Positions 10,566 to 62,513 of a DNA stretch of 64,000 nucleotides are shown here, in pieces. This stretch comes from Polyangiales bacterium. GTDB taxonomy: Bacteria; Myxococcota_A; Polyangia; Polyangiales; Polyangiaceae. The position numbers were made by a program, and so were the translations under genes. Numbering within the stretch: the stretch's first letter is position 1; every line of letters starts with the position of its first letter. The DNA lies in contig JBBRLQ010000026.1 of assembly GCA_038231275.1 (NCBI GenBank), forward strand, positions 32,001 to 96,000. Reading direction: 5' to 3'. The notes under the pieces were generated by a model. It was not told where the DNA came from and did no database searches. It saw only the letters and a program-made list of their open reading frames with translations.

Positions 10566-10601
10566 TTGACAATGCTCGTGGCATCACTACAACTGTAGTG
10601 A
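10566..10601 (+). promoter_or_regulatory. Sigma-70 promoter with BlaI/CopY-type operator
   Basis: TTGACA at 10566-71; palindrome TCACTACA-AC-TGTAGTGA at 10584-10601 contains the TACA-N2-TGTA core and overlaps the expected -10. Confidence 0.88.
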
Positions 10602-33148: not shown

Positions 33149-33496
33149 CTATTCGCCGAGCACTTTTCGGAGGAGCTCTTCGGCGCGGACGTCGAGGTGG
33201 AGGAACTTCAAGCCGACGTCGAAGCGCGCGACGGCTCCCTTCGGCAGCTTCTCTACCCACGCGACCATCGCCTGAAATGTCACTTCGTCGTCACCGGCGC
33301 CCTCGACGAAGAGCTCCAACGTCAATCGATCGCCGACCTTCATCGGCTCGTCGCTGTAGATGCGGACGCCGCCGCGGCTCACGTCCACGGCCTCTTGCCG
33401 CTTGGACATGATCTTCAGCCCGGCGGGGCGACAGAAGACCGGCGCCTGGATTCGTCGATAGCGTCGCCTCTCGGGACCGTCGTCCGCCGAACCCAT
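33149..33496 (-). CDS. PilZ domain protein (paralog)
   Basis: RRRYRR and DVSRGG, GLKF. Confidence 0.88.
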   Translation of the reverse strand: MGSADDGPERRRYRRIQAPVFCRPAGLKIMSKRQEAVDVSRGGVRIYSDEPMKVGDRLTLELFVEGAGDDEVTFQAMVAWVEKLPKGAVARFDVGLKFLHLDVRAEELLRKVLGE

Positions 33497-33570
33497 TCCA
33501 AGAAGCATGTCTGACCGAAGCCGGCGCGCAAGGGCGTTCGCGCAAGGGCGTTGTGGTACCGTTTTCGGTC

Positions 33571-34551
33571 ATGTTCTCTCGCGACGTCCTCGAGATCGAT
33601 CGCGAGGCTGTGACGCGCGAGATCGCCGAGACCGTGCGCGCCCAGGTGCTCGGAACGCTCAAGCGTCGGGGCGCGATCGTCGGCCTCTCGGGCGGGATCG
33701 ACAGCTCGGTCGTCGCGGCGCTGGCGGTGCGGGCGCTCGGAAAAGAGAAGGTGCTCGGTGTCTTCATGCCCGAGCGCGATTCGTCGGGCGACTCGCTGCG
33801 CCTGGGGAGGCTCCTCGCGGAGTCGCTCGGCATCGAGACCGTGCTCGAGGACATCGCGGGCACCGTGGAGGCCGCCGGCTGCTACCGCCGCCAGGACGAC
33901 GCCGTCCGCACCGTGTTCCCGGAGTACGGGCCCGGGTACAAGTGCAAGATCACCCTGCCGTCGATCCTCGAGAGCGAGCGGCTCAACGTCTTTCAGCTCA
34001 CGATCCAGTCGCCGTCCGGCGAGACGAAGACGAGCCGCATGGGGCTCGCGGCATTCCTGCTGCTCGTGGCGGCGACCAACCTCAAGCAGCGCGCGCGGAA
34101 GATGATGGAATACTTCCACGCCGATCGGCTGAACTACGCCGTCGCCGGCACGCCGAACCGGCTCGAGTACGACCAGGGCTTCTTCGTGAAGCAAGGAGAC
34201 GGCGCCGCGGATTTCAAGCCGATCGCGCACCTCTACAAGACGCAGGTGTACGCGCTCGCCGCGCACCTCCATGTCCCCGCGGAAATTTGCGAGAGGCCGC
34301 CCACGACCGACACGTACTCGATGCCGCAGACCCAGGAGGAGTTCTACTTCGCGCTCCCCTACGACAAGATGGACCTGTGCCTGTACGGCAAGAACCACGG
34401 CGTCCCGGCAGCGGAGGTCGCGCCGATCGTCGGCGTCACCGCGGAGCAGGTCGAGCGCGTCTACAAGGACATCGACAAGAAGCGGATGACGACGCGCTAC
34501 CTCCACGCGCGCCCGCTCCTCGTCCACGACGTGCTCGAGATCGCGAAGTAG
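33571..34551 (+). CDS. nadE: NadE-like NH3-dependent NAD(+) synthase family protein
   Basis: GLSGGIDSS, NLKQRARK, GTPNRLE, GFFVKQGDG, LYKTQV. Confidence 0.88.
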   Translation: MFSRDVLEIDREAVTREIAETVRAQVLGTLKRRGAIVGLSGGIDSSVVAALAVRALGKEKVLGVFMPERDSSGDSLRLGRLLAESLGIETVLEDIAGTVEAAGCYRRQDDAVRTVFPEYGPGYKCKITLPSILESERLNVFQLTIQSPSGETKTSRMGLAAFLLLVAATNLKQRARKMMEYFHADRLNYAVAGTPNRLEYDQGFFVKQGDGAADFKPIAHLYKTQVYALAAHLHVPAEICERPPTTDTYSMPQTQEEFYFALPYDKMDLCLYGKNHGVPAAEVAPIVGVTAEQVERVYKDIDKKRMTTRYLHARPLLVHDVLEIAK

Positions 34552-34552
34552 A

Positions 34553-36541: not shown

Positions 36542-38091
36542 ACGGCGTTCCCCAGCTCCACGACTACCTCTCCGACTCCGCGCGGCGCCTGCCGGAGAAG
36601 ATTGCGCTCGTCTGTCGCAAGCAGCGCTTCTCGTACCGCGAGCTCGATCGGCGCGCGAACCGTCTCGCCCACGCGCTTCAACGGCGCGGAGTCTCGCGCG
36701 GCGATCGGATCGTCGTCTTCGCGGACAACACGGTAGAGACCGTGATCGCGTTCTGGGCGATCTTGAAGGCGAACGCCGTCGTCTCGATCGTCAACCCCCT
36801 CACCAAGGCCGACAAGCTCGCCTACCTCTTGAACGACTGCCGCGCGGTGGCGCTCGTCACCGACGGGCACCTCACGCCGGTCTTCGCCGACGCCGCGACG
36901 AAGTCTCGGCACCTCCGCCACGTCATCATTTCCGGGGCGATCGACGCGGCGCGCACAGCGAGCCTGCCCGGGGTGGTCGCGTGGGACGTGGCCCTCGAGG
37001 ATGGAGATCCCGCCGCGCCGCCGCCCCGGAAGAACATCGACATCGACCTCGCCGCCATCATCTACACCTCGGGGAGCACCGGCGATCCGAAGGGCGTCAT
37101 GCTCACCCACCGGAACATGCTCACCGCGGCGCGCTCGATCACGACGTACCTCGAGAACGTCGAGGACGACGTGATCCTCGGCGTCCTCCCCCTCGCCTTC
37201 GATTACGGCCTCTACCAGATGATCATGGCGTTCCGCGTCGGCGCCCGCCTCGTGCTCGAGCGCTCGTTCACCTACCCGGCCCAGGTGCTCGAGGTGGTGG
37301 TCAGCGAGAAGGTCACCGGCTTCCCCGGCGTGCCGACCATCTTCGCCATCCTCGCGGAGATGAAGACGCTCAAATCCCATGATTTTTCGAGCATCCGCTA
37401 CGCGACGAACACCGCCGCGGCGTTGCCGGTCAAGCACATCACCGTCCTGCAAGACATCTTCCCGGGCGCGAAGATCTTCAGCATGTACGGCCTCACCGAG
37501 TGCAAGCGCTGCACGTACCTCCCGCCCGCCGATCTCGCGCGCAAGCCGACCAGCGTAGGCGTCGCCATCCCGAACACCGAGCTCTGGATCGTCGACGAGA
37601 ACGGCGCAAAGGTCGGTCCCAACGTCGTCGGCCAGCTCGTCATCCGCGGCGCGACCGTCATGAAGGGCTACTGGGAGAAGCCCGAGGAGACGGCGAAGAA
37701 GCTGCGGCCCGGTCCAGTGCCCGGCGAACAGGTCCTCTACACCGGCGATCTCTGCAAGCTCGACGACGAGGGCTACCTCACCTTCGTCGGGCGCATGGAC
37801 GACATCATCAAGAGCCGCGGCGAGAAGGTGGCGCCGAAGGAGGTCGAGACCGCGCTCATGAACGTCGTCGGCGTGAAAGAGGCGGCGGTCATCGGCGTGC
37901 CCGACGAGATCCTCGGCCAGGCGATCAAAGCGTTCGTGGTCCTAGAAGAGGGCGCGACGCTGACCGAGAAGGATCTCCAGAAGGAGTGCCAGAGGCGCCT
38001 CGAGAATTTCATGGTGCCCAAGCACTTCGCGTTCGTCGCCGAGCTTCCGAAGACGACGACCGGCAAGATCAAGAAGACGGGGCTCGCGTGA
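36538..38091 (+). CDS. AMP-dependent ligase (class I adenylate-forming)
   Basis: YTSGSTGDPKG, YGLTEC, TGD, PKTTTGKI; ATGA overlap with asnB. Confidence 0.93.
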   Translation: MNGVPQLHDYLSDSARRLPEKIALVCRKQRFSYRELDRRANRLAHALQRRGVSRGDRIVVFADNTVETVIAFWAILKANAVVSIVNPLTKADKLAYLLNDCRAVALVTDGHLTPVFADAATKSRHLRHVIISGAIDAARTASLPGVVAWDVALEDGDPAAPPPRKNIDIDLAAIIYTSGSTGDPKGVMLTHRNMLTAARSITTYLENVEDDVILGVLPLAFDYGLYQMIMAFRVGARLVLERSFTYPAQVLEVVVSEKVTGFPGVPTIFAILAEMKTLKSHDFSSIRYATNTAAALPVKHITVLQDIFPGAKIFSMYGLTECKRCTYLPPADLARKPTSVGVAIPNTELWIVDENGAKVGPNVVGQLVIRGATVMKGYWEKPEETAKKLRPGPVPGEQVLYTGDLCKLDDEGYLTFVGRMDDIIKSRGEKVAPKEVETALMNVVGVKEAAVIGVPDEILGQAIKAFVVLEEGATLTEKDLQKECQRRLENFMVPKHFAFVAELPKTTTGKIKKTGLA

Positions 38092-38768
38092 GCGAGGACG
38101 AGCGCGTTCGTCGCGCGTACGCCGAGGGGCGCGTTCGGTTCTTGGATCTCGATCTGGAGATCGCGCCGGGCGCGCTCGTCCCTCGTCGAGAGACGGAGCT
38201 CCTCGCGCGCACGGCGATCGGTCTCCTCGCGGCCCTGCCAGGCGACCTTCGCGTGGTGGACATGTGCTGCGGCTCCGGAAACCTCGCGTGCGCCATCGCG
38301 TCCTTCATCCCGCAATCGCACGTGTGGGCGAGCGATCTGACGGACGGTTGCGTGGCGGTCACGAGGAGGAACGTCGCGCGCCTGGACCTCGGCGCGCGGG
38401 TGACGGTCACGCAAGGCGATCTGTTCGCCGCCCTCGCCGGCTCGGGCCTCGAGGCTGCGGTCGACGTCGTCGTCTGCAACCCGCCGTACATCTCGACCGG
38501 CCGCCTCGAGAAGGAGCGCAAGGAACTGCTCGATCACGAGCCGCGCGAAGCGTTCGACGGGGGCCCCTACGGCCTCACGATTCACCAGCGCGTCGTCCGA
38601 GAGGCGCCCCCGTTCCTGCGCGCGGGGGGGTCGCTCCTCTTCGAGATCGGGCTTGGGCAGGAGCGTCAGGTCGACGTCCTCTTTCGTCGCGCGACCTCGT
38701 ACACTGCCACCGTGCACGAAAAGGACGCCGACGGTCACGTGCGCGTCGTGATGGCAAAGAAGGTCTGA
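38088..38768 (+). CDS. HemK/PrmC-like methyltransferase lacking the N-terminal domain
   Basis: LVPRRETE, DMCCGSG, NPPY, HEP..A..GG..GL, FEIG..Q; 226 aa; GTGA overlap. Confidence 0.88.
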   Translation: MSEDERVRRAYAEGRVRFLDLDLEIAPGALVPRRETELLARTAIGLLAALPGDLRVVDMCCGSGNLACAIASFIPQSHVWASDLTDGCVAVTRRNVARLDLGARVTVTQGDLFAALAGSGLEAAVDVVVCNPPYISTGRLEKERKELLDHEPREAFDGGPYGLTIHQRVVREAPPFLRAGGSLLFEIGLGQERQVDVLFRRATSYTATVHEKDADGHVRVVMAKKV

Positions 38769-38771
38769 CGA

Positions 38772-39014
38772 ATGGAAATCAAGGAGCAGGTCCGTCAGTT
38801 CATCGTCAGCAACTTCTACGTCGCGGACCCCGTTGCGGTCGGAGACGAGACGTCGCTCCTCGACCAGGGCATCATCGACTCGACCGGCGTCCTCGAGGTC
38901 ATCAGCTTCCTCGAGTCGACGTTCGGCATCGTGGTCGCCGACGAGGAGATGCTCCCCGACAACCTCGACACGATCGGGCGCATCGCCGCGTTCGTCGGCA
39001 AGAAAAGGGCATGA
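38772..39014 (+). CDS. Acyl carrier protein (carrier 1)
   Basis: 80 aa, acidic, GIIDSTG phosphopantetheine site. Confidence 0.93.
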   Translation: MEIKEQVRQFIVSNFYVADPVAVGDETSLLDQGIIDSTGVLEVISFLESTFGIVVADEEMLPDNLDTIGRIAAFVGKKRA

Positions 39015-42513: not shown

Positions 42514-43269
42514 TCAGGAGCGGCGCGACGCGTAGGCGCGCCAGTACGGCGACGCCTTGAGCAACTCGAGGTGAGGCGACGCATCGAGCAGCTTCAGCGT
42601 CTCGCCGGGGGGCTTTCGGTAGAGCAGAATCACCTTGCGTGGATGCGCGGCGATCGACGCCTCCACGTGGCGGATCGCGCGCGCCGCGATTTCATCGGGG
42701 AACGGCGCGTTCATGAAGAAGAGCGCGGGGCGCGGCGCGATCGCGTGGCGCATGAAGTCGTCGCACACCCACTCCACGCGGAGGTCACGGCCCGTCGCGC
42801 GCTCGAAGATGGCGAGGTTCTTCTTTCCTGCCTCCACGAGGGGTGGCGAAAATTCGACCCCCACGAGCTCGCGGAATGGGTAGTCGCTCGCCAGCATCAG
42901 CGCGAGGCCCTTCCCTGCCCCGACGTCGACGAAGCCGTAGTCCTCGAAGCGAATCGGCAGCGCGCGCAGCATCTCGTGGAAGAAGTCGGGGTTGACCGGG
43001 CCGTACATCCACGTCCCGAACGTCGGATCGAAGCCGCCCGTGATCTCCAGGTCGGAGAGGTGCAAACGCTCGTAGGTGTCGGTGCCGTACTTGCGGTCGA
43101 AGGCGCGCGTCCGGTAATCCGTGTAGCGGCCCATCCACTCCTGGAGCCGGCCAACCGCGTGCCGGCCGACGCCGACCCGTCCGGAGACCTTGTGGAGCAC
43201 GCTGAGCGCACCCCCAAAGTGGGACGTCGAGTCCAAGAGCCCGCGCGCGCGGAGGAGTAGGGTCTTCAT
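42514..43269 (-). CDS. Class I SAM-dependent methyltransferase
   Basis: FDRKYGTDT, FVDVGAGKG, GVEFS, FFMNAPF. Confidence 0.85.
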   Translation of the reverse strand: MKTLLLRARGLLDSTSHFGGALSVLHKVSGRVGVGRHAVGRLQEWMGRYTDYRTRAFDRKYGTDTYERLHLSDLEITGGFDPTFGTWMYGPVNPDFFHEMLRALPIRFEDYGFVDVGAGKGLALMLASDYPFRELVGVEFSPPLVEAGKKNLAIFERATGRDLRVEWVCDDFMRHAIAPRPALFFMNAPFPDEIAARAIRHVEASIAAHPRKVILLYRKPPGETLKLLDASPHLELLKASPYWRAYASRRS

Positions 43270-43272
43270 CGG

Positions 43273-44196
43273 ATGGGAACGGAGTCTCTCACGAGGGCGC
43301 CGCGGCGCAACCGGCTCGGACGCGCCGCGCTCGTCGCGCTCGCGATCTTCGTGGTGGGGTGCGCGGCGCAGGCGGTTCGCGTGGCGCGGCGGACGATCGC
43401 CTCGTGCCACCCGGCGCGTGCCCGCCTCCGCGCCGAAGATCACGCCGCCGCGCGCGACGCGTTCCCGTCGTTGGAGGAGGTCTCGTTCCGCACGAAGGAC
43501 GGAATCACGCTGCGCGGTTGGCGGATCCCGTCGAAGAACCGCGCGGCCGTGATCCTCGTACACGGCGGTGGCGGCAACCGAGCGCACTGGATGCCGGAGC
43601 TCCGCGCCCTCGCGGACCGCGGCTACGGCGCCCTCGCCTATGACTCGCGCGCGTGCGGAGAGAGCGACGGTGATCTCGTCACCGCAGGCGATCGGGAGCG
43701 GGCCGACGTCGTCGCGGCGCTCGACCTCGTCACGACAAGTGCCGACGTGGATCCGGCGCGCGTCGGCCTCGTCGGTTTCTCGTACGGAGCGTCGGCCGTG
43801 CTCCTCGTCGCCGCGACCGACACACGCGCGCGCGCGGTCCTGGTGGGCGCATCGTGGACGTCACTCGAGGACGAGCTTACGAAGAAAAGCGGAAAATTCC
43901 AGCCGATCGCGAACGTCGCGAGCCTCTGGGCGATGCGCCACGAAGGCGTGCGCGTCGACGACGTCCGCCCGATCGATCACGTCGCCGAGATCTCGCCTAG
44001 ACCGCTCTTCCTCGTGACGGGCGACCTCGACACCGACACGCCCGTCGCTGTCGTGCGGGCGCTGCTCGACGCCGCTCGTATGCCCAAAGAGCTCTGGATC
44101 GTCCCCGGCGCGGGCCACGGAGACTACGCGGCGGTGTCGCCGGCGGAGGTTCCCCGCCGCTTCGTGGCGTTCTTCGACGGCGCGCTCCTGCGGTAG
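43273..44196 (+). CDS. Alpha/beta-hydrolase, probably membrane-anchored or a lipoprotein
   Basis: Hydrophobic N-terminus ending VVGC; HGGG, GFSYG, D (GDLDT), GAGH. Confidence 0.88.
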   Translation: MGTESLTRAPRRNRLGRAALVALAIFVVGCAAQAVRVARRTIASCHPARARLRAEDHAAARDAFPSLEEVSFRTKDGITLRGWRIPSKNRAAVILVHGGGGNRAHWMPELRALADRGYGALAYDSRACGESDGDLVTAGDRERADVVAALDLVTTSADVDPARVGLVGFSYGASAVLLVAATDTRARAVLVGASWTSLEDELTKKSGKFQPIANVASLWAMRHEGVRVDDVRPIDHVAEISPRPLFLVTGDLDTDTPVAVVRALLDAARMPKELWIVPGAGHGDYAAVSPAEVPRRFVAFFDGALLR

Positions 44197-51913: not shown

Positions 51914-53854
51914 ATGTGCGGAATCGCCGGAATCCTCGGGCGCGTGGGCGACCGAAATCGCGCCGCGCTCCGCCGGATGAGCGCCGCGATGCTCCACCGC
52001 GGCCCTGACGCCGACGGCACCTGGGAGGCTCCGCCCGACGATCGGGGGCGCGGCGTCCTCCTGGCGCATCGTCGTCTCTCGATCATCGATCTGTCACCGG
52101 CGGGCGCGCAGCCGATGATCGATCCGGTCACCGGGCACGTCACGGTCTACAACGGCGAAATCTACAACTACCAGGCGGTGCGCGAGGAGCTCGCATCGGA
52201 GGGGCAGAGGTTCGCGTCGACCGGCGACACGGCGGTCATGCTCCGCGCGCTCTCGGTCCACGGGCGGCGCGCGCTGACGAAGCTGCGCGGGATGTTCGCG
52301 CTGGCGCTCTGGGATCCGGCGCGGCGCGAGCTCCTCCTCGCGCGCGATCCGCTGGGAATCAAGCCGATTTACGTCGCACGAAACTCGGACCCCGACGGAG
52401 ACTGGTCGATTGCGTTCGCCTCCGAGGTGCGCGCGATCCTGGCGTCGGGCCTCCTGGGGACGGCGCGCCTCGATCCGCAGGCGGCGGCGTCGGTCGCGTG
52501 GAACGGCTTCGTCGTGGGGCCGCGCACGGTCGTGGCGGGCGTCGAGCTCCTGTCGTCCGGGGCGGCGCGCGTCTACGACGCGGGGGGAACGCAGGTGGCG
52601 TCGGAGGAGTACTGGTCCATGCCGGCGCCCGGTCACGGATCTCCGGCGACGGAGGCCGAGCTGGCGCGCGCGCTGGAGGAGTGCCTGCGCCTGCACCTCA
52701 TCGCCGACGTGCCGCTCGGGATTTTTCTCTCGAGTGGGATCGACTCGTCGGCGGTCGCGAACCTCGCGCAGCGCGCGGCCCCGGGCGGCGTGCGAACGTT
52801 CACGCTGGCGTTCGAGGAGAAAGAGTTCGACGAGGGAGCGTGGGCGAAGAAGATCGCCAAGGCGATCGGCACGCAGCACCAGGAGGTCGTGCTCACCGAG
52901 CAGGCGTTCGTCACCGGCCTCGAGACCGCGCTCGACACACTCGATCAGCCGACGTTCGACGGGCTCAACTCCTACTTCATGTCGCGCGCCGTCCGCGACG
53001 CCGGCTTCACGGTGGCGCTCGTGGGGACCGGCGGCGACGAGCTCTTCGGCGGCTACACGTCGTTCCGCGATCTGCCTGCGCTCCTCGCGTGGTCCAAGCG
53101 CGCGCGCAGGATTCCACGCGGCGCGCTCGTCGGCCTCGCGCGCAAAGTCGTGGCGACGCTGCAGCCCGAGCGCGGCTCATTCCCGCGGCAAACACGCTGG
53201 GCGAAGCTCCCCGACATGATCCGAGACGGCGACGATCTGCTCGCCCTCTACCAGCTCGCCTACGCGCTCTTCTTGCCGAGCACCCAGCGCGAGCTCGTCG
53301 GCGACGACGCCGCCCGCGCCTTGGTCGACGGCCTGCCCGCCGAGATGCACGCGCGCGTCGTCCGCGATACGCGCGGGCGATCTCCGCTGTCGGCGCTCAG
53401 CGTGATGGAAGAGCGCCTCTTCCTCGGCGAGCGCCTCCTCCGCGACAACGACGCCGCGAGCATGGCCGCGTCGATCGAGCAGCGCCTGCCCCTCGTCGAT
53501 CAGGTGCTGTTCGAGACGGTGGATCGCCTCCCCGAAACCGTGCGCTATGCGCCGGTGAGAAAGAAGGCGGCGCTGAGGCGCGTTGGGCTCGCTGGGCTCG
53601 ACCCCGCGCTCTTCAATCGCCCCAAGGTCGGCTTCGTCCTCCCGTTCGACCGCTGGATCCGGCAAGGACTGACCAAGGCCGTCGACGAGACGCTGCGGGA
53701 TGCCGCGGCGGTTCGCGCGGCAGGCCTTCGCGCAGAGCCGGTCGAGCGCCTATGGCGAGCGTTCCAGGCCGGCGCGCCCGGCGTATACTGGTCGCGCGTG
53801 TGGTCGCTCTACGCGCACGTCCGCTGGTGCCATCGCCACAAGGTCCTCGCATGA
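51914..53854 (+). CDS. asnB: Asparagine synthase family amidotransferase (second copy)
   Basis: MCGI, HRGPD, YNGEIYN, SSGIDSS, GTGGDE, EQRLPLVD. Confidence 0.93.
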   Translation: MCGIAGILGRVGDRNRAALRRMSAAMLHRGPDADGTWEAPPDDRGRGVLLAHRRLSIIDLSPAGAQPMIDPVTGHVTVYNGEIYNYQAVREELASEGQRFASTGDTAVMLRALSVHGRRALTKLRGMFALALWDPARRELLLARDPLGIKPIYVARNSDPDGDWSIAFASEVRAILASGLLGTARLDPQAAASVAWNGFVVGPRTVVAGVELLSSGAARVYDAGGTQVASEEYWSMPAPGHGSPATEAELARALEECLRLHLIADVPLGIFLSSGIDSSAVANLAQRAAPGGVRTFTLAFEEKEFDEGAWAKKIAKAIGTQHQEVVLTEQAFVTGLETALDTLDQPTFDGLNSYFMSRAVRDAGFTVALVGTGGDELFGGYTSFRDLPALLAWSKRARRIPRGALVGLARKVVATLQPERGSFPRQTRWAKLPDMIRDGDDLLALYQLAYALFLPSTQRELVGDDAARALVDGLPAEMHARVVRDTRGRSPLSALSVMEERLFLGERLLRDNDAASMAASIEQRLPLVDQVLFETVDRLPETVRYAPVRKKAALRRVGLAGLDPALFNRPKVGFVLPFDRWIRQGLTKAVDETLRDAAAVRAAGLRAEPVERLWRAFQAGAPGVYWSRVWSLYAHVRWCHRHKVLA

Positions 53855-54840
53855 GCTCGCGCAAGTACTGCCTCATCACCCCGTGCCGCGACGAAGCGAA
53901 GTACGCGAGGCGCACGCTCGACTCCGTCACGGGCCAGACCGAGCCCCCTACCCTCTGGGTCATCGTCGACGACGGCTCCAAGGACGAGACACCCGCGATC
54001 CTCGCCGACTACGCCGCGCGCTTTCCGTTCATCCGCGTCGTGACGCGCGCCGATCGCGGCGCTCGGAAGGTCGGCGGCGGCGTCATCGACGCGTTTTACT
54101 CCGGGTGGGACACGATCACGCCGAGCGACTTCGACTACGTCTGCAAGCTGGACCTCGATCTGGATCTTCCGCCCGCCTACTTCGCCGGCCTCATGGACCG
54201 GATGGAGGCTGGACCGCGCATCGGCACCTGCTCGGGAAAGCCCTATTTTTTCCCTGAAAGCACCGCCGACGACGTCGTCACATTTCCACTGTCCGATCCC
54301 AGCTCGGTCGGCCTTGTCTCCGAGATGATTGGCGACGAGCACTCCGTCGGGATGACCAAGTTCTACCGAACGAGCTGCTTCGCGCAGATCGGCGGCTTCG
54401 TGCGCGAGGTGATGTGGGACGGCATCGACAGCCACCGCTGCCGCCAGCTCGGGTGGATCGCGGTGTCGTGGGACGATCCCGCGCTGCGCTTCGTGCATCT
54501 CAGGCCGATGGGGACGAGCCAGAAGAACTGGTGGACCGGCCGCGTTCGCCACGGCTTCGGGCAGTACTTCATGGGCACCGCGCCGGTGTACATGCTGGCG
54601 AGCGCGATCTACCGCATGACGCGGCCGCCGCTCGTCGTCGGCGGCATCGCGATGATGCACGGCTACCTGGACAGCATGGTCAAAGGGAAGCCGCGGTACG
54701 GGACGCCGGAGTTCCGGGCGTTCTTGCGGCGCTACCAGCTCGCGTGCCTCGTGAAGGGCAAGAAGCGCGCGACAGAGGAGCTCGACGCAGAGCAGGCCGC
54801 GCGCTGGCATCCGTCGCCAGAGGACGCGCCGCGCTCGTGA
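53851..54840 (+). CDS. Glycosyltransferase family 2
   Basis: ITPCRDE, VDDGSKD, KLDLD, MWDGID; ATGA overlap. Confidence 0.9.
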   Translation: MSSRKYCLITPCRDEAKYARRTLDSVTGQTEPPTLWVIVDDGSKDETPAILADYAARFPFIRVVTRADRGARKVGGGVIDAFYSGWDTITPSDFDYVCKLDLDLDLPPAYFAGLMDRMEAGPRIGTCSGKPYFFPESTADDVVTFPLSDPSSVGLVSEMIGDEHSVGMTKFYRTSCFAQIGGFVREVMWDGIDSHRCRQLGWIAVSWDDPALRFVHLRPMGTSQKNWWTGRVRHGFGQYFMGTAPVYMLASAIYRMTRPPLVVGGIAMMHGYLDSMVKGKPRYGTPEFRAFLRRYQLACLVKGKKRATEELDAEQAARWHPSPEDAPRS

Positions 54841-56618
54841 CGACGGGCCTCGCCATCCCCGTCGTCTTCGGGCCCGCGGGCCGCGCGATCTCGGGGTTTC
54901 ATCACCCGGCGCGCGCCGCGGATGGACGCACGCGCGCCATCGGTATCGTCTTGTGCAATCCGCTCGGGTACGACGCGATGTGCACGCACCGCACGTACCG
55001 TCACCTCGCCGAGCGCGCGGCCGAGCACGGATTTCAGACGCTGCGCTTCGACTACGAAGGGACCGGAGACTCCGCCGGTCGCCCGGACTCGCCCGATCGC
55101 GGGCGGGCGTGGCTCGACAGCGTCGCATTCGCGATCGACGAGTTGCGCGCGCGCTCAGGCGTCGAGAAGGTCGCGCTCTTCGGCGTACGGTTCGGCGCGA
55201 CCCTCGCGGCAACGGCGGCGGCGACGCGCGACGACGTGGACGCGCTGATCTTGTGGGCGCCGTGCGCGTCGGGGCGCGCGTACGTGCGCGAGCTCCGCGC
55301 GTTCCGGATGATCAAGGCGAAGGAAGCGCCGAAGGCGAGCGACGTGGGCGACGAGGAGGTGGCGGGCTACCTCTTCGACAAGGCGACCGTGGCGGACATG
55401 AGCGCGCTCGATCTCCTCGCTCGCCGTGAGCGGCCGGCGCGACGCGTGCTCGTCGTCCCGCGTGATCTGGCGTCGGCAGAGGCCCGCCTGGTCACGCACC
55501 TCGAGGCGGTGGGCGCCGCGGTGACCGTCGCGCGTGAGTCGGGGTACGCACTGATGATGCGCGATCCGCAGGACACGATCGTCCCCGTCGGCACGTTGGA
55601 CGGGATCGTCGAGTGGCTGGCGCACGGAGAGCCCTTGGATTCGCCGCACCCTCCCTCTCGAGACCATGCGCCTCCGCCCGTGCTCACCACGACCGCCGCG
55701 TCGGGCGCCGAGGTCCGCGAAGAGGCCGTGCAGTTCGGCGACGGCGACCGCCTGTTCGGCGTGGTCACCGAGCCCATCGCGCGCGAGTGCCTCGCGGGCG
55801 GCCCGACGATCTTGTTCTTGAACGTGGGCGCGAACCACCGCGTCGGGCCGAACCGCATGTACGTCTCGATGGCGCGTGACCTCGCCGCGCTCGGCTACCG
55901 CGGCATGCGCTTCGACGTGGCCGGCCTCGGCGACAGCCGCATCGCCCCCGGCGCGCCCGAGAACCGGCTCTATTCGAAGGACTCCGTCGTCGACGTGAAA
56001 GCGGCGATGGACTTTCTCGAGAAGACGCGCGGCGCGAGGCGCTTCGTCCTCCTCGGGTTGTGCTCGGGCGCGTACCTCGCCTTTCATACCGCCGTCGAGG
56101 ACCCTCGCGTCGTCGGTCAGGTGCTCTTGAACCCACAGACCTTCGAGTGGAAAGAGGGGGACTCGCTCGAGCTCTCGATGCGAAAGAGCTTCCTCTCGAC
56201 CCGCTACTACGCGCGCGCGCTCTTGGAGCCGGCGATGTGGAAGCGGCTCGTACGCGGGCGAGTCAACGTGCGCGGCGTCATGGGTGCCCTGCGCGAGCGA
56301 ATGGCGACGCAGGCGCGCGCCCGCGCGGAGGCGCTACGTGCACGGCTCACCGGCCAGCGCGAGCCGCAGACCGACATCGAGCGCGCGTTCGTCGCCATCT
56401 CCGATCGCGGCGTCGCTTCGCTGCTGGTCTTCAGCTTCGATGACGGGGGCCTCGACATGATCGAGCAGCACCTCGGCCGGAACGTCCGCAAGATGGCCCG
56501 GCGAAAGAACTTCCATTTCGAAATCGTGGACGGCGCCGACCACACTTTCACCCCCATCCACTCGCAGCACACGCTGCACGGGATCGTCACCCGCTACGTG
56601 ACGGCCAGCTTCGGCTGA
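54837..56618 (+). CDS. Tandem double alpha/beta-hydrolase-fold protein
   Basis: Domain 1: RFDYEGTGDS, GVRFG. Domain 2: RFDVAGLGDS, GLCSG, ADHTF. GTGA overlap. Confidence 0.88.
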   Translation: MTTGLAIPVVFGPAGRAISGFHHPARAADGRTRAIGIVLCNPLGYDAMCTHRTYRHLAERAAEHGFQTLRFDYEGTGDSAGRPDSPDRGRAWLDSVAFAIDELRARSGVEKVALFGVRFGATLAATAAATRDDVDALILWAPCASGRAYVRELRAFRMIKAKEAPKASDVGDEEVAGYLFDKATVADMSALDLLARRERPARRVLVVPRDLASAEARLVTHLEAVGAAVTVARESGYALMMRDPQDTIVPVGTLDGIVEWLAHGEPLDSPHPPSRDHAPPPVLTTTAASGAEVREEAVQFGDGDRLFGVVTEPIARECLAGGPTILFLNVGANHRVGPNRMYVSMARDLAALGYRGMRFDVAGLGDSRIAPGAPENRLYSKDSVVDVKAAMDFLEKTRGARRFVLLGLCSGAYLAFHTAVEDPRVVGQVLLNPQTFEWKEGDSLELSMRKSFLSTRYYARALLEPAMWKRLVRGRVNVRGVMGALRERMATQARARAEALRARLTGQREPQTDIERAFVAISDRGVASLLVFSFDDGGLDMIEQHLGRNVRKMARRKNFHFEIVDGADHTFTPIHSQHTLHGIVTRYVTASFG

Positions 56619-56626
56619 TTTTCTTC

Positions 56627-59161
56627 TTACGTCTTCGCGACGACGATCTTCGTCGGCGAGGCTGCGTTCAGAGGGACGACGCGGCCGGGAGACGCGTCGG
56701 TGCGGAGGCCGTGCAGCGTGACGGTGCGCTCGCCGCCCGGCTCGACGTGGAAGAACTCGTCGTCGGCGACGAATCCGCGCGCGTCGAAGGCGACGGCGAG
56801 CGCGAGCCTCTTGGCGCGCACGGTGACACGCCACGTCTCCGCGGGTCCCGGCGTCGCCACCGCCTCGACGCCGAGGTCTGCCGCCCGCGCGTGCGGGGTG
56901 CCGCACGGGAAATGGAACGCGCGCCCGATGCACGCCCCGTCCTTCCGATCGACGAGGGTGCCGACGACGAGATCGTGTCCTGGCGGACCGAAGCGGTACG
57001 CGTAGGTCGTGTCGACGAAGCGCCCGAGGACGGAGTCGGCAGAGATGGCGGTCACGCCGCGCGCCGGGACGGCCACCGGCGCGGCGCCTTCGACGACGCG
57101 TACATCGCCCCGGTAGAGCGTGACGCGCACCTCCGTGTCGAGCGCCACGGGGCCGTCGTTGACGGCGTGGAACGTGAGGCCGTTGAGGCCTTCGTCGGTC
57201 GCGAGGAGGGCCACCGGCGCGAACGCACGCGCGAGGTAGTGGTACGCCGCCTTGGGACGCCCGTTCGCGTCGACGACGCCCCACCCCGCCCCCGCCCAAA
57301 GGTCACGGAGGAGCCAGACCAGCGCACCTTTGCACTCCGAGCCCGCGCGTCGAAACTCCGAGATCGTCGCGAGCATCGCCTCGCCGGTGACGACGCGCCC
57401 GAGCTCGAGGTAGCGCGCGACGTCGGCGGCCCGAAGCAGCGCCGGATCGACGCCGAAGAGTCGGCCGAGGTAGTGATCGCGAACGTCCTCGAAATCCCAC
57501 GAGGCGCCGCGATCGCGCGGGACGCGGGCCTTCCATCGCGGGTGGTTCGGAGGAGACTCACCGTCGCGGAGGAGGCCCTCGATCGTCTCGTCGCACGGGA
57601 CGTTCGCGAACGCGAGGCACTCGGCGGTGAAGCGCACGCGAGATCGTCGCGCGTCTTCGAGCGGCCGCAAGTACGCGCCGACGCCGTAGTAATGCGACAC
57701 CCCCTCGTCGACGCGGAACGGCAGCGCCCCGCCCTCCGGTGTGCTCGCCACGTAGGGAACGTCGGGACGCGCCGCGCGCGCGACGGCCGGCAAGAGCTCG
57801 TCGAAGAGCGGACCGGACCACTCCTTCTCCGGCAGGCCGAGCATCGCGGCCTGCTGCGCGACCTCGCTGTTTCCGCAAAAAATTGCCAGGCTGGGCGAGA
57901 GCTGGAGCCGGCTCGCGAGCTGCGTCGCCTCGGCGCGAACGGACGCAGCGAACGCCTCGTCGGCGATCGGGTAGTCCATGTTGGCGAACATGAAGTCCTG
58001 CCACACCATGATGCCGAGCTCGTCGCAGAGATCGTGGAAGGTCTCGGGCGCGTAGCCCATCGTGCCGCCGACGCGGAGCATGTTCATCCCTGCGCGCGCG
58101 GCCATCGTGAGCGCGGCGCGCAGATCCTGGAGATCGTCGCCGTCGGTGATCCCGACGAGGTCGAGCGGCGTCCAGACGGCCCCTCGCGCGAAGACGTCCA
58201 CCCCGTTGACGCGAACGCCGAAGCCGCCGCCCTCGCGATCGAGCGTGATCGTACGAAAGCCGGTCCTGCCGAGGTCCATCTTCACGTCGCCGCGATCGGT
58301 GTGGGCGACGACGACGACGTCGTGGAGCGTCGGCGCACCGTGGGTCGCCGGCCACCAGAGCGCGACGTCGGGGATCGTGAGCGTGCCGCGCGCGACGACG
58401 GCGCCGTCCGCCTGCGATTCGGTGACCAGCTCCGTGACCGCGGCCCCGACGGCGAGCGATACGCTGCGAATGAGCGCGGGTCCGACGGTCGCGAGACGGA
58501 GCGCGATGTCCAAGGCGCCGTCGCGACCCTCTACGCGCGTCCTCGCGTCGGCAGAGAGCACGCATACACGCCCGCGCCGCTCGACGGCGATCGCGCGGTA
58601 GGGCCCGACCGGCGCGACCGGCGGCGACCACGCCGGGATGCGCCCGAGGAGCGCCGTTCGAATCCAGCGAAGCTGCTGCTGCGCCACGATCTGCGCGCGC
58701 CACCGCGGCCGCGGGCGGCGCTTCTTCAGCTCCTCGGTGATCGACGCGAACCGCAGGACGAGCTCGCCCGGGCCGCCGTGGCCAGTCACGTCGACGTCGT
58801 GCGCGAGGAACATGTTGTCGGAGCGAAGGACGTGCGCGCCGTCGAGCCACACGTCCGCGAGCGTCGCGAGGCCGTCGAAGCGGAGGATCACCTTCTCGTC
58901 GGCCTCGCGCGGCGTGAGGTCGACCTTCGCGCGAAACCACCAGTCGCTCTCGTCGAAGTCGCGCCCGTCGTCGAGGCTCCACGCCTTCGCGGCCGCGAGC
59001 GCGCTCGCCGCGGTGCCCGGCACTCGCGCGTCGAACCAGCGCGCGCTCGCGGCCTCGAGCCCCGCCGGATCGCTCACGGAGCCCGCCGCAAGCGCGGCGC
59101 ACGACCATCCGCCCGAAAGCGTGGTCACCAGGGTCCCGTCGATCGCGCGGACCTTGGCCAT
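56627..59161 (-). CDS. Glycoside hydrolase family 2 (beta-mannosidase-like), no signal peptide
   Basis: FDGLAT, SDNMF, WWP..HG, NMLRVGG, CDELGIMVWQDFMFAN, CGNSE, RFTAEC. Confidence 0.9.
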   Translation of the reverse strand: MAKVRAIDGTLVTTLSGGWSCAALAAGSVSDPAGLEAASARWFDARVPGTAASALAAAKAWSLDDGRDFDESDWWFRAKVDLTPREADEKVILRFDGLATLADVWLDGAHVLRSDNMFLAHDVDVTGHGGPGELVLRFASITEELKKRRPRPRWRAQIVAQQQLRWIRTALLGRIPAWSPPVAPVGPYRAIAVERRGRVCVLSADARTRVEGRDGALDIALRLATVGPALIRSVSLAVGAAVTELVTESQADGAVVARGTLTIPDVALWWPATHGAPTLHDVVVVAHTDRGDVKMDLGRTGFRTITLDREGGGFGVRVNGVDVFARGAVWTPLDLVGITDGDDLQDLRAALTMAARAGMNMLRVGGTMGYAPETFHDLCDELGIMVWQDFMFANMDYPIADEAFAASVRAEATQLASRLQLSPSLAIFCGNSEVAQQAAMLGLPEKEWSGPLFDELLPAVARAARPDVPYVASTPEGGALPFRVDEGVSHYYGVGAYLRPLEDARRSRVRFTAECLAFANVPCDETIEGLLRDGESPPNHPRWKARVPRDRGASWDFEDVRDHYLGRLFGVDPALLRAADVARYLELGRVVTGEAMLATISEFRRAGSECKGALVWLLRDLWAGAGWGVVDANGRPKAAYHYLARAFAPVALLATDEGLNGLTFHAVNDGPVALDTEVRVTLYRGDVRVVEGAAPVAVPARGVTAISADSVLGRFVDTTYAYRFGPPGHDLVVGTLVDRKDGACIGRAFHFPCGTPHARAADLGVEAVATPGPAETWRVTVRAKRLALAVAFDARGFVADDEFFHVEPGGERTVTLHGLRTDASPGRVVPLNAASPTKIVVAKT

Positions 59162-60144
59162 CAGACCTGGTAGCGCCGGGCGAGCGCCGAGACGCCAACC
59201 TCCCACGCGCGCTCGAGGTCCGACAGCATCGGCCCCAGATCGACGACCTTCTTCGCGCCGACCGCGCGCGCGGTCTTCAAGATGAGCGATTTACTCGTGT
59301 CGGAGATCGCCATGAACGCCTTCGCGCTCTCCTCCAGGCCGCCCTCACCGCGCTCGCCGAGCCACCGCAGGTAGAGCGCCGCGAGCTCGAACGCAGAGCC
59401 GAGCTGCCGGATCGTGGCGAACGCGTACACGTGGTACGCGCCGAGCCCCTCCCCCTTGAGCCGCTCGACGTCCTCCTTGAACCGCGCTGAGAAGCGCGCG
59501 AGCGGGTTGTCGTCGGGCCGACGCGCGAGGTGCTTTTGCAAGAGCTCCACCGAGCGGCGCGTAAGATCCGCCGGATCGCGAAGAACGACCCGCGCGGTGC
59601 GGACGAACTCCGCGAAGAACGGCATGAACGTCGGATCGGCCGGCGCGCCCAGTCGAAACAGGCTCACGAAGTCCTCGCCTGCGAGCGCGTGGTAGCTGCT
59701 GTTGTGGAAATACCCGAGCGTGCGCGCCTCGACGTCGATCTCCTGGATGCCGATCGTCGTCTTCGTGTGCTGCGTTCGGTAGTCGGTTCCCACGGTGTCG
59801 GGCAAATAGAACGCGTCGGCCTCCGCCAGGACGAGCTTGCCGCCGCGGAGCATCTCTTGCGCGTTGTCGATGAGCGGGCGGTAGACGTTGAGCTCTTGGA
59901 TGTCGAGGCCGTAGAGCGCCGTCAGGTCCTCGTGCGGCGGCTTGAAGAAAGTGAATTGATCGCCCTCCCAGTCGAGCCCCATCAAGAACCCGAGGCACGC
60001 GTGCGGATCGCAGCCGAGCGCGTGCAGGACCTCGATCCACACGTCGATGTAGCAGTTCGACTCGCCCCACGCGCGCGTCGGGCCGTGGAGCGCGTGCGGC
60101 ACGTATGCCTTCGCGTCGATCGACCGGAGCGCGGCGACCTTCAC
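59161..60144 (-). CDS. DUF1839 family protein
   Basis: WGESNCYIDVWIEVLH, DWEGDQFTFFK, DAFYLPDT, YAFATIRQLG; coupled to both neighbours. Confidence 0.85.
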   Translation of the reverse strand: MKVAALRSIDAKAYVPHALHGPTRAWGESNCYIDVWIEVLHALGCDPHACLGFLMGLDWEGDQFTFFKPPHEDLTALYGLDIQELNVYRPLIDNAQEMLRGGKLVLAEADAFYLPDTVGTDYRTQHTKTTIGIQEIDVEARTLGYFHNSSYHALAGEDFVSLFRLGAPADPTFMPFFAEFVRTARVVLRDPADLTRRSVELLQKHLARRPDDNPLARFSARFKEDVERLKGEGLGAYHVYAFATIRQLGSAFELAALYLRWLGERGEGGLEESAKAFMAISDTSKSLILKTARAVGAKKVVDLGPMLSDLERAWEVGVSALARRYQV

Positions 60145-61052
60145 GGCCAGAGCTTCTCCCGGACCGCCGCCGGCCACGTCTTCGGATCGAAACCGTGGTG
60201 CTTGAAGAGCGCCATGCACACGCGCTCCATCCCGAAGCCGAGGCACGCGGTGTTGGCGAGCTTGCCGTCGGCGGTCTTGATGTCGAAGATCTTGCCGAAG
60301 TGATCCTGGTGCCAGTTGAAGGAGCACACCGCGGTGGGCTTCTCTTCGGAGATGACGGGGATGGTGACCTCGAATTTGAGCTGCTGCTCGCGCTGCGTCG
60401 CCGCGAGCATGCGGCCGCCGCGGCCGAAGAACGGATCGTTCGCGACCTCCGGCTTCGCGGGGAGGCCGAGGGCGCGCATGATCGTGACGCCGCGCTCGAG
60501 CCACATGTCACGCCACGCGACGACCACCTCCGGCGCGCCGACCCGCACGAACTCGCGGACGCGGAAGGCCTGCATGCGCGTCGGCTCGGTCGACGGCTCG
60601 TTGCGGAAGACCCAGTTCTGCATGTCGACGAGTCGCCCCGCCGGGCCGAGCGTGCCTGTGAAGCTCGGATAGACGGGGTAGCAAGCGGCGGGCGTCAGCA
60701 CCACGTCGGTCATCGTCTGGAGCGCGCTCCACGACTCACCGGCGTGGACGCGCGACGCGAGCTCCGCGTGCTCCTTCTCTTTGCCGGCGAACGAGAAGAC
60801 CGTGCCGGCCAGCTGCGGGAACGAGTCCAGGAACTCGCTCTTTTCGAGCACCTTGCGATCTAGCGTCGGCGGAAAGAGCATCTGCTCGGCGCCGTCGTCC
60901 TTCGCGACGCGCGAGACGTAGTCGTCGAAGTGACGGAGCACGTCCTCGAAGACGGCGTTTCGCCCGAAAATTCCCGGCACGCCGACCGGGATGATGAGCC
61001 CCGACTGGACCAGCCCGTCGTAGAGCTCCTGCGAGGAGTACGTCACGCCCAT
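60141..61052 (-). CDS. Amino acid:[carrier protein] ligase (truncated atypical SerRS homolog)
   Basis: 303 aa with no tRNA-binding domain; TPAACYP, FRNEP, F..RE, SFNWHQDHFG, TACLGFGMER. Confidence 0.93.
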   Translation of the reverse strand: MGVTYSSQELYDGLVQSGLIIPVGVPGIFGRNAVFEDVLRHFDDYVSRVAKDDGAEQMLFPPTLDRKVLEKSEFLDSFPQLAGTVFSFAGKEKEHAELASRVHAGESWSALQTMTDVVLTPAACYPVYPSFTGTLGPAGRLVDMQNWVFRNEPSTEPTRMQAFRVREFVRVGAPEVVVAWRDMWLERGVTIMRALGLPAKPEVANDPFFGRGGRMLAATQREQQLKFEVTIPVISEEKPTAVCSFNWHQDHFGKIFDIKTADGKLANTACLGFGMERVCMALFKHHGFDPKTWPAAVREKLWP

Positions 61053-61067
61053 GAAGGTTCGCCTCGT

Positions 61068-62246
61068 TCAGTCGTCCTTGAGGACGAGCAACATCGACGC
61101 GTTCGTCGACAGGATGCGATCGTTGCCCACCATGAGCGCCGCGGAGAGCGCGTCGCGGAGGTGACGGCCGACCGAGAATTTAGAGTCGTTCTTGTAGCCC
61201 ATGATTCCGCAAATCTGGAGCGCGTGGTGGACGATCTGCGACGCCATCTGCGACGACGAGACCTTCAGGTTGTTCATCTTCAGCGCAAAGGCGATCGACG
61301 ACAGACTCTTGGTGCCCTGCTCGTCGTCTTTCATGAGCGCCTCGCACTCGCTCGCCACGTCGTGCGCGTTGGTGCGCATCGACTGGAGCATGCTCGAGAC
61401 CTCGGCCAAGCGGAGCGCGCTGGGAGGGACGGTGCCGGGTTTGGCGCGCGCTTGCTGGCGCACGAACGCGCGCGCGCGCCGCACCGCGCCCATCGATATG
61501 CCGAGCCACACGTTCGACCACAAGACGTGGCTGAACGGCACCTGCGTCTCGCTCGCGACGTCGGAGAACGGCGTCGTGAAAATCTGACCATCCTCCCCCT
61601 TCGATTGGAGCATGAACGGCGGGCTGCAGGTGCCGCGCATGCCGAGCGTGTCCCAAACGCCTTTCTGGGTGAGCGTGACGTCCTTCTTCCTGACGAGGAC
61701 GAAGATCTGATCGTTCGGGGGCGAGTCGGGGCCCCGCCGCGCCTGGAAAAGGATGTCGTCGGCCTGCGCGCCGTAAGAAATCGTCGTGCAGTCCTTGTCG
61801 AGGGTGAAGCGCCCGGCGCCGTCGTGCGCCACCGCGCATTTGCTGGTGCGCATCTCTCCGCCGATGCCGGCCTCGCTCGTCGCCGAGGCGATCAGGATCT
61901 GCTCGCGGACCAGATCGCCGACGTACTTCTGGTAGTACGGCTGTCCCATCGCGTGGCGAAGGATGCTCGCCACCTGGATGTGGTGCATCGCGAAGACCAT
62001 CGCCGCGGACGCGCAGTGCTGGCCGAGCGCCTCGCACATCGCGGCGAGCTCGATCATCCCGCACCCGAGCCCGCCTTGCTCGCGCGGGACGAGCGCGCTC
62101 ATCATACGCGCCTTCTTGAGCGCCTCGATCGCTTCGGTCGGGAAGCGCGCGTCGCGATCGACGGCGTCGGCGGCGGGGCCCGCGATCTCCTCAGCGAGGC
62201 GCTGGACGATCTCGACCGACGACGAGCGGGTCTCCTGGGCTTGCAT
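61068..62246 (-). CDS. Acyl-CoA (acyl-ACP) dehydrogenase family protein
   Basis: VDRDARFP, VPREQGG.G, ATSE, LGMRGT, ALQICGIMGY, RHLRD. Confidence 0.92.
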   Translation of the reverse strand: MQAQETRSSSVEIVQRLAEEIAGPAADAVDRDARFPTEAIEALKKARMMSALVPREQGGLGCGMIELAAMCEALGQHCASAAMVFAMHHIQVASILRHAMGQPYYQKYVGDLVREQILIASATSEAGIGGEMRTSKCAVAHDGAGRFTLDKDCTTISYGAQADDILFQARRGPDSPPNDQIFVLVRKKDVTLTQKGVWDTLGMRGTCSPPFMLQSKGEDGQIFTTPFSDVASETQVPFSHVLWSNVWLGISMGAVRRARAFVRQQARAKPGTVPPSALRLAEVSSMLQSMRTNAHDVASECEALMKDDEQGTKSLSSIAFALKMNNLKVSSSQMASQIVHHALQICGIMGYKNDSKFSVGRHLRDALSAALMVGNDRILSTNASMLLVLKDD

Positions 62247-62270
62247 GATTCGTGCGTTCCCTGCTTCCGC

Positions 62271-62513
62271 TCAGCGGTCCTTGGTCAGCTCTTCGATCGC
62301 CGCCCGGATGGCGGCGACGCTCTCGAACACCCCGCGGCGCAGCATGCGATCGGGGAACTCCACGTCGAACGTCCCCTCGAGCGCGAGCATCACGTTGACG
62401 CTGGCGTGCGACGTCATCCCCGACTGGTAGAGATCGCCGTCGTCGGCGAGGGCGTCGACGTCGACCGCCAGGCGACCGTGCTCCTTCAGGATGGCGCGAA
62501 TCTGATCGTTCAT
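62271..62513 (-). CDS. Carrier protein 2 (likely cognate of the aa:CP ligase)
   Basis: 80 aa; DLYQSGMTSHASV Ser site; FDVEFPD. Confidence 0.92.
   Translation of the reverse strand: MNDQIRAILKEHGRLAVDVDALADDGDLYQSGMTSHASVNVMLALEGTFDVEFPDRMLRRGVFESVAAIRAAIEELTKDR

Follow-up and report, generated by a model that had tools for sequence, protein, structure and literature searches.

A fused alpha/beta-hydrolase with arginine and cysteine elbows next to an aminoacyl carrier protein cassette in a Polyangiales bacterium

Two kinds of described systems stand closest to the gene analyzed here. One is a pair of catalogued families, exosortase A-associated hydrolase 2 (TIGR03101) and hydrolase 1 (TIGR03100), which occur in genomes that have the exosortase A (XrtA)/PEP-CTERM system. 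The other is represented by the Bradyrhizobium Bll0957 and Agrobacterium Atu2571 systems, whose published description, in the parts available, covers the loading step only. The loading enzymes are structurally solved, yet the available part of a 2022 review (PMC9437257) still calls their biological role unknown; it names Gly, Ala or Ser as the amino acid that these ligases join to the phosphopantetheine of a carrier protein. Here, we describe a gene from a Polyangiales bacterium that has likenesses to both. It lies in a 64,000-nucleotide stretch of contig JBBRLQ010000026.1 (assembly GCA_038231275.1, positions 32,001 to 96,000 of the forward strand), which is called the window throughout, and it encodes a fused double alpha/beta-hydrolase (P0001; 54837-56618, + strand).

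The conserved neighbour of this hydrolase is a ligase cassette of the Bll0957 type, and not the glycosyltransferase and amidotransferase genes to which it is coupled in the window or a ligase of the exosortase type. We propose that the hydrolase may unload the aminoacyl carrier protein ACP2 of this cassette by means of Cys409, with transfer of the acyl group to an acceptor, a reading that we rate slightly below an even chance. A literature search uncovered no publication that addresses what this hydrolase does, which is no proof that none exists, since subscription papers were mostly outside its coverage.

Arginine and cysteine elbows of the fused hydrolase

The open reading frame at 54837-56618 (+) translates to 593 amino acids with no internal stop, and third-position GC content gives a coding signal in this frame from about 54840 to 56620. 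Reading of the sequence revealed no in-frame alternative start just 5' of the GTG start codon, and no signal peptide was seen on inspection by eye only. Pfam detects two alpha/beta-hydrolase regions. Domain 1 (residues 1-270, 54837-55646) is hydrolase-2-like, and domain 2 (residues 291-593, 55707-56615) is hydrolase-1-like. The Arg118 codon is located at 55188-55190 (translated context ALFGVRFGATLAA, elbow GVRFG) and the Cys409 codon at 56061-56063 (translated context VLLGLCSGAYLAF, elbow GLCSG). Asp536 is encoded at 56442-56444 and His569 at 56541-56543, where the C-terminal stretch VDGADHTFTP places D568 and H569 in the motif ADHTF. A preliminary description, which was made from the letters of the sequence, had named an elbow Arg at 55188, an elbow Cys at 56061 and the His of a DHTF motif. 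All three were found at these codons, and in the structural model the Arg and the Cys each sit on an elbow.

This model was built with AlphaFold2 on 59 sequences, namely the query and 58 of 120 listed relatives. It had a mean predicted local distance difference test score (pLDDT) of 88.6 and a predicted template modelling score of 0.90. Arg118 is placed between the strand 111-117 and the helix 119-129, and Cys409 between the strand 403-408 and the helix 410-421. Thus, both residues are at true nucleophile-elbow positions. The Ser-His-Asp triad of type II thioesterases and serine alpha/beta hydrolases was not found, as Arg118 and Cys409 take the nucleophile positions. In domain 2, D536 follows the strand 527-533 and H569 the strand 559-564, which is the canonical topology of acid and His. 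A helical lid covers approximately residues 432-525; its loop 437-449 has low pLDDT, yet it holds the invariant residues W438 and D442. In domain 1, the His position in the loop after the strand 228-231 is occupied by Y237, and the domain has no nucleophile.

Cys40 was considered as a second catalytic thiol, since it was invariant in the first alignment. It was rejected: it ends the strand 35-40, is replaced by Val in 13 of the 150 fused representatives introduced below and, in the alignment of hydrolase-2 sequences, in 53 of the 66 rows, and is likely structural. The N-terminal half has an isoelectric point of 6.2 and the C-terminal half one of 9.7. Overall charge was discarded as a clue to the half that docks the carrier protein, because it is either uninformative or counts against the N-terminal half.

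Next to these residues, we analyzed how far the protein and its elbows are conserved. When 5.8 billion proteins were searched through a word index, 900 relatives were obtained at E<=0.001; among the 120 matches listed, identity was 51-100% at a query coverage of 81-100%. HMMER with a family profile against 1.84 billion representatives gave 21611 matches at E<=0.001, of which 5756 reached E<=1e-30. Residues were counted in the 150 best of these 5756, taken as representatives at 50% identity; each of the 150 was one full-length match across the profile. At the position of Arg118, 137 of the 150 have R and eight have H. The position of Cys409 is C in 149/150 and S in none. His569 is conserved in 143 of 145 ungapped sequences, the position of Asp536 is D in 124/150 and E in 18/150, and that of Tyr237 is Y in 125/150 and F in 17/150. 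Chance does not account for such a pattern. A set of 81 sequences derived from loci had R at the first elbow in 75 and a single S at the Cys position, with conservation otherwise similar. When one genome was scanned for each species, at least 547 encoding loci were detected, and all matches in the ESM Atlas belonged to this same family, which has no name. The gene typifies a large fused variant of the hydrolase 2/1 pair that is so far uncharacterised.

Longer fusions occur among the metagenome representatives. One (P0338) joins the double hydrolase to a C-terminal polysaccharide deacetylase domain (PF01522), another (P0318) carries an N-terminal GNAT/FemAB-like domain (PF13480) in front of it. 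Two more, P0047 and P0289, comprise one fusion with a methyltransferase and one with a second hydrolase copy.

Comparison with curated profiles related the two halves to the two exosortase-associated families. The N-terminal half scored 106.7 bits on TIGR03101 (hydr2_PEP) over residues 33-194, below the curated cut-off of 202.75; in a whole-genome scan with this profile, 80.2 bits were recorded at this gene. The C-terminal half scored 139.8 bits on TIGR03100 (hydr1_PEP) over residues 302-589, corresponding to profile positions 10-273 of 274, below a cut-off of 168.45. In hhalign comparisons the N-terminal half scored 389 (E 1e-57) against the hydrolase-2 set and 146 against the hydrolase-1 set. 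The C-terminal half scored 302 (E 2e-43) against the hydrolase-1 set and 115 against the hydrolase-2 set. Judged by these profiles, the halves are reciprocal-best matches to the hydrolase-2 and hydrolase-1 families. Identity reaches 40% over 149 residues to a hydrolase 2 named by the Joint Genome Institute (JGI) and 34% over 195 residues to a hydrolase 1 named by NCBI.

The elbows were then compared with those of stand-alone relatives. An Arg elbow of the form G-x-R-x-G and a Cys elbow G-L-C-x-G combined with the His of D-H-T-F are used here as hallmarks; they were derived in this analysis and are not published definitions. Both are present in the fused hydrolase (GVRFG; GLCSG with ADHTF). All 65 stand-alone relatives of the hydrolase-2 type carry the elbow Arg, and JGI has given seven of them the name 'exosortase A-associated hydrolase 2'. 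The elbow Cys was found in 72 of 72 stand-alone hydrolase-1 relatives, together with the His in 71 of 71 ungapped sequences; these relatives were shorter than 450 residues, three matches of 450 residues or more having been dropped first. A Janthinobacterium protein named 'hydrolase 1, exosortase A system-associated' by NCBI (P0252) has GLCDG and DADHTF. In another genome of the phylum, the two genes of a split pair (locus L007) stand in this order too; the elbow of the first is GLRFG and that of the second GLCGG. On the alignments, both odd elbows are hallmarks of two catalogued families of unknown function and not oddities of this gene. Since the Arg is invariant in stand-alone hydrolase-2 relatives, the first elbow is not a product of decay. 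The term 'dead elbow', by which it had previously been described, therefore holds insofar as domain 1 has no nucleophile, but its Arg is strongly selected and not degenerate.

The likeness to exosortase A-associated hydrolases 2 and 1 had also been pointed out before. It is borne out by the profile placement, by the reciprocal-best matches and by the order 2 then 1, the adjacency of the two being achieved here by fusion in one reading frame. Like the exosortase hydrolases, the protein has both elbow hallmarks and is found with carrier proteins alongside it in polysaccharide loci. It differs from them in that its domains are fused and the lid of domain 2 is longer. We do not assign it to the exosortase A set, however. 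Both cut-offs are missed, and profiles of exosortase (PF09721, TIGR03109) had no match in the genome of the window, which is 94% complete, so that absence is not proven. Thus the protein is regarded as a fused relative of the exosortase A-associated families rather than as a member. Scans of 201 genomes from the phylum and of five proteobacterial genomes gave no TIGR03101 member above the cut-off.

The folds of the two domains were compared with solved structures by VIA-align. Domain 1 (about residues 5-268) matched S33-type lipases and feruloyl esterases, with TTL lipase at the top (9h0z_F; Z 24.3, root-mean-square deviation (rmsd) 2.8, 241 residues aligned). Domain 2 (291-593) matched small esterases such as PsEst3 (7v8x; Z 21.6, rmsd 3.0, 216 aligned). 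Thioesterases were present in the same lists (DcsB, 7d78, Z 22.1; LuxD, 1tht, Z 20.2). As far as the model goes, these matches fix the alpha/beta-hydrolase fold and not a function.

Linkage to an amino acid:carrier protein ligase cassette

A cassette of five genes on the reverse strand (56627-62513) is convergent with the hydrolase gene, with eight bases between the stop codons; this arrangement recurs in three related loci (L055, L063 and L075). In the direction of its transcription, the cassette begins with the gene of the aminoacyl carrier protein ACP2 at 62271-62513 (-), which has the motif TSHAS and scores 108 bits on NF005480 (cut-off 72). Next is an acyl-CoA-dehydrogenase (ACAD)-fold protein at 61068-62246 (-; PF02771, PF00441). 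An amino acid:[carrier protein] ligase, similar to seryl-tRNA synthetase, is encoded at 60141-61052 (-) and reaches 421.4 bits on NF005479 against a cut-off of 357. It is followed by a papain-like Cys protein of the DUF1839 family at 59161-60144 (-; PF08893, E 3.4e-105) with an invariant N-C-Y motif. The last gene, at 56627-59161 (-) with an ATG start at 59161, encodes a beta-mannosidase homologue similar to glycoside hydrolase family 2 (GH2-like; PF22666), which matches PDB entry 5n6u with E 5.3e-56 over residues 85-703. In the PDB, the ligase matches 3mey (Bll0957, E 8.1e-74) and 4h2w (E 3.3e-75), and ACP2 matches 4h2w_C and 2jq4 (Atu2571) with E 3e-17. An adjacent ligase and carrier protein, both above curated cut-offs, are what a Bll0957/Atu2573-type operon contains. 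The locus thus shares a homologous ligase and carrier with the Bradyrhizobium and Agrobacterium systems, and the fused hydrolase is a regular gene in such operons.

This regularity was tested by comparing the proteins of the locus with the best 80 related loci (tblastn, E<=1e-6, at least half of the query covered). These loci are from Myxococcota, Pseudomonadota, Gemmatimonadota, Acidobacteriota, Actinomycetota, Planctomycetota and Verrucomicrobiota. As the genomes are related to one another, the counts characterise this sample and should not be read as a statistical test. The ligase was found in 39 of the 80 loci, ACP2 and the ACAD-fold protein in 38 each, the GH2-like protein in 35 and DUF1839 in 33. 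At least one cassette gene was present in 42 loci, at least three in 39 and all five in 30. The canonical order of ACP, ACAD, ligase, DUF1839 and GH2-like gene, then the hydrolase, all on the same strand, was observed in 19 loci. Of the 35 loci with a GH2-like gene, 27 have it immediately 5' of the hydrolase gene and on the same strand, which makes it the most constant direct neighbour. The cassette usually lies inside polysaccharide loci, in at least seven phyla.

The association extends beyond the immediate surroundings of the hydrolase gene. In five genomes, no cassette lies within 10 kb of the hydrolase locus, yet all five encode a homologue of the ligase, and in two of them (G206, G209) contig number and coordinates put the ligase about 15-17 kb from the hydrolase. 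Among the 201 genomes sampled from the phylum, the ligase was found in five and the full-length fused hydrolase in four, one of them broken over two contigs. In all four, the ligase is on the same contig, 1.5-8 kb off. Judged by gene order, the hydrolase belongs functionally with the adjoining amino acid:carrier protein ligase operon, as its most regular terminal gene. The exosortase hydrolases differ in this respect, as the partner here is a cassette with a ligase like an aminoacyl-tRNA synthetase, and not the set of ligase_PEP_1 and decarboxylase.

The preliminary description had instead drawn attention to the genes that precede the hydrolase in the window. These are a family 2 glycosyltransferase (GT2) gene at 53851-54840 (+; PF00535, E 4.4e-15) and, before it, asnB2 for an AsnB-type amidotransferase at 51914-53854 (+). 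AsnB2 scores 378.7 bits on TIGR01536, above the cut-off, and 352.8 bits on TIGR03108, the XrtA/PEP-CTERM amidotransferase, under its cut-off of 816.9. The translational coupling that had been described is real in the window: the GTG start of the hydrolase runs into the stop codon of the GT2 gene (GTGA at 54837-54840), just as the ATG start of the GT2 gene does with the asnB2 stop (ATGA at 53851-53854). As characteristic partners, the two were rejected, because a homologue of this GT2 was found in none of the 80 loci and one of AsnB in a single locus. GT2 genes are also located 5' of the hydrolase in Paraburkholderia-type loci, but they are unrelated to that of the window (BLASTP E 3.8). In the window and in ten loci that lack the cassette, the gene directly 5' of the hydrolase is a GT2 gene, and these GT2 genes are unrelated.

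Such a position behind GT2 genes in polysaccharide loci would also suit a cytoplasmic esterase or deacylase that acts on an acylated sugar or glycan independently of any carrier. Its linkage to the cassette would then be indirect, and Arg118 would bind the carboxylate of a uronic acid or a diphosphate. In both sequence and fold, the solved proteins nearest to the hydrolase are esterases and lipases such as feruloyl esterases, TTL lipase and PET46, and the fusion of P0338 to a polysaccharide deacetylase fits such a role as well. Against this, the linkage to the carrier cassette is tight, ordered and found across phyla, and stand-alone relatives lie directly 3' of carrier-protein genes, with a gap of about 60 bases in locus L113. 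We therefore consider an esterase of this kind quite improbable.

The DUF1839 protein deserves attention as a second enzyme of the cassette that could act on the carrier-bound group. Its model has a pLDDT of 93.5, and the residues N30-C31-Y32 are invariant in 33 sequences. By VIA-align, the closest structures were CcbD (7yn1_A; Z 19.5, rmsd 3.8, 290 aligned), AziU3/U2 (7wuw_C; Z 17.3) and CtaG (9qvj_A; Z 17.3), and the next match had a Z of 8.1. On this structural likeness, DUF1839 is a candidate carrier-dependent amide ligase. A 2023 survey (PMC10318531) classes DUF1839 as papain-like and, in the part available, offers acyl-CoA-dependent glycan processing as a guess from context. According to the available text of a 2026 paper (PMC12865890), CtaG is a papain-like ligase that forms an amide between two carrier-bound substrates via an enzyme-bound intermediate, and CcbD acylates an amino sugar with a carrier-bound substrate. 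The likeness to CtaG and CcbD is one of DUF1839 and not of the hydrolase, which has a different fold.

As a separate observation, in eight loci (L028, L046, L047, L051, L057, L062, L067 and L073) the tblastn matches to the long DUF1839 reading frame also covered about 0.3 kb at the 3' end of the ligase gene, in a different frame. The extension is probably conserved overlapping DNA rather than a longer protein.

Possible transfer or hydrolysis of the carrier-bound acyl group

Based on the intact Cys-Asp-His site, the partner domain with its conserved Arg and the tight linkage to a cassette in which an aminoacyl thioester on ACP2 is the only chemistry known, we infer that Cys409 attacks the thioester of ACP2. 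The preliminary description had put forward a Cys-dependent acyl-ACP transferase, in which the Arg domain would be a non-catalytic half for docking. In the sequence of events proposed here, the ligase would load a small amino acid onto ACP2; for characterised homologues, the table of a review gives Gly or Ala. The ACAD-fold enzyme, DUF1839 or both may modify or extend the ACP2-bound group. Attack by Cys409 would then give an acyl-S-enzyme. An acceptor other than water would resolve it, likely a sugar or a lipid- or nucleotide-linked glycan on the cytoplasmic side. The pocket around Arg118, formed by the elbow, the helix dipole and amides like those of an oxyanion hole, would hold an anion. This could be the phosphate of phosphopantetheine, the diphosphate of the acceptor or a carboxylate.

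Several observations incline us towards a transfer to a sugar or a glycan. Substitution of the Cys by Ser is virtually absent. The Arg/Cys pair is the only visible off-loader in cassettes of the exosortase type. Rare fusions join the double hydrolase to a polysaccharide deacetylase or a GNAT/FemAB-like domain, and unrelated GT2 genes are found directly 5' of the hydrolase. A similar logic is known from D-alanylation by DltABCD and lipid A glycylation by AlmEFG, where a carrier-loaded amino acid ends on a surface glycopolymer; the loading enzymes and transferases of these systems are of other families, and no homology is claimed. A further step would be to see the Arg/Cys module as the last step of the carrier pathways that rely on ligases of this kind. 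Cys409 would hold the amino acid as a thioester, the Arg118 pocket would clamp either the phosphate of phosphopantetheine or the diphosphate of a sugar linked to a lipid or nucleotide, and the amino acid would be written onto the nascent exopolysaccharide at the cytoplasmic face. This specific version is possible but doubtful.

Proteins that act on carrier-bound aminoacyl groups have been described. CmaE, SyrC and CouN7 of non-ribosomal pathways presumably have an alpha/beta-hydrolase fold with an active-site Cys. The likeness to the hydrolase considered here is one of function. They consist of a single domain and lack a partner with an Arg elbow, and none of their structures appeared in the fold lists obtained with the hydrolase. 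In the available part of PMC8748450, they are acyltransferase-type proteins that move carrier-bound aminoacyl or acyl groups to another carrier or to a free acceptor.

The proposed unloading with transfer has to be weighed against a number of observations that speak against it. The compared genomes are related, hence the linkage counts are not independent samples. Within the locus DNA compared, 38 of the 80 loci have no cassette gene. One genome (G078, contig G078:C107) has the ligase and no hydrolase at E<=1e-30. In another locus (L119, G178:C393), ACP, ACAD, DUF1839, GH2-like gene and hydrolase are present with no ligase between ACAD and DUF1839. The fold lists hold generic esterases, lipases and thioesterases and no function-specific neighbour. 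Furthermore, DUF1839 is a second strong transferase candidate in the cassette, and the hydrolase may only hydrolyse or proofread. A Cys nucleophile is compatible with hydrolysis, as dienelactone hydrolase is a Cys hydrolase.

These last points lead to a plain thioesterase. Here, Cys409 would take the acyl group and water would resolve the intermediate, so that the enzyme either releases a free acid or clears mis-loaded or stalled ACP2, while DUF1839 transfers the group to an amine. This main alternative is a serious one because DUF1839 resembles CcbD and CtaG far more closely than background matches (Z 19.5 and 17.3, next 8.1; PMC12865890, as far as its available text goes). DcsB and LuxD are among the structural neighbours of the hydrolase. 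However, a plain hydrolase would not be expected to have Cys in 149 of 150 sequences and Ser in none, with one S in the set of 81. Nor is it obvious what an additional, strongly conserved Arg domain would contribute to proofreading, and the exosortase-type cassettes contain the Arg/Cys pair and no DUF1839. On balance, we consider a thioesterase unlikely.

The second carrier module and the meaning of the Arg/Cys pair

The window contains a second carrier module at 36538-39014 (+), 16 kb 5' of the hydrolase. It consists of a ligase_PEP_1-like adenylating enzyme (36538-38091), an MTS methyltransferase identified by PF05175 (38100-38768) and a carrier protein, ACP1 (38772-39014). A NadE-like gene and a further AsnB gene precede it, the whole span being 33412-39014 (+). 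The adenylating enzyme scores 492 bits on TIGR03098, under the cut-off of 592. Elsewhere in the phylum, split Arg/Cys pairs without the ligase were found in six of 201 genomes. These pairs adjoin ACP1-like or ligase_PEP_1-like genes; in L113, the ACP1-like gene lies about 60 bases 5'. In a genome scan, no split Arg/Cys pair was found beside the second module or anywhere in the genome of the window. Since such modules elsewhere carry a split pair and none was found here, by analogy the fused hydrolase might serve both carriers, ACP2 and ACP1, in line with the preliminary description, which had considered each ACP. Another alpha/beta hydrolase, at 43261-44196 (+) within the polysaccharide locus, was considered as a partner of ACP1 and rejected, as it is a canonical serine hydrolase (GFSYG/GAGHGD) with a lipoprotein-like N-terminus.

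The presence of two carrier modules next to a single Arg/Cys hydrolase suggests yet another function, a shuttle between ACP2 (62271-62513) and ACP1 (38772-39014) in the manner of CmaE or SyrC, with each domain perhaps docking one carrier. The neighbourhood of split pairs in other genomes and the precedent of CmaE and SyrC in the available part of PMC8748450 are consistent with it. In the 80 related loci, in contrast, a homologue of ACP1 was found once and that of the ligase_PEP_1-like enzyme seven times, at 23-32% identity. Most loci show ACP2 alone, so that a role with two carriers is not the general function of the family, and for the hydrolase of the window we regard a shuttle as very improbable.

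Elsewhere in the window, at 7954-10583 (-), a KaiC-like ATPase is encoded beside a protein with two response-regulator receiver domains; this is unrelated to the hydrolase.

The gene is in itself an ordinary one within a very large family; what is unusual is the pair of active-site substitutions. The acyl-enzyme at Cys409, its acceptor and the function of the Arg would together reveal the product of the pathway. The same answers bear on amino acids on bacterial surface polysaccharides and on the hydrolase 1 and hydrolase 2 families of exosortase loci. If the Arg/Cys module does write the amino acid onto the nascent exopolysaccharide, the amino acid:carrier protein ligases would gain the biological function that has been missing for them since 2010, and the pair of pseudoenzyme and enzyme in one alpha/beta-hydrolase protein would represent a new class of glycan aminoacyl transferase.

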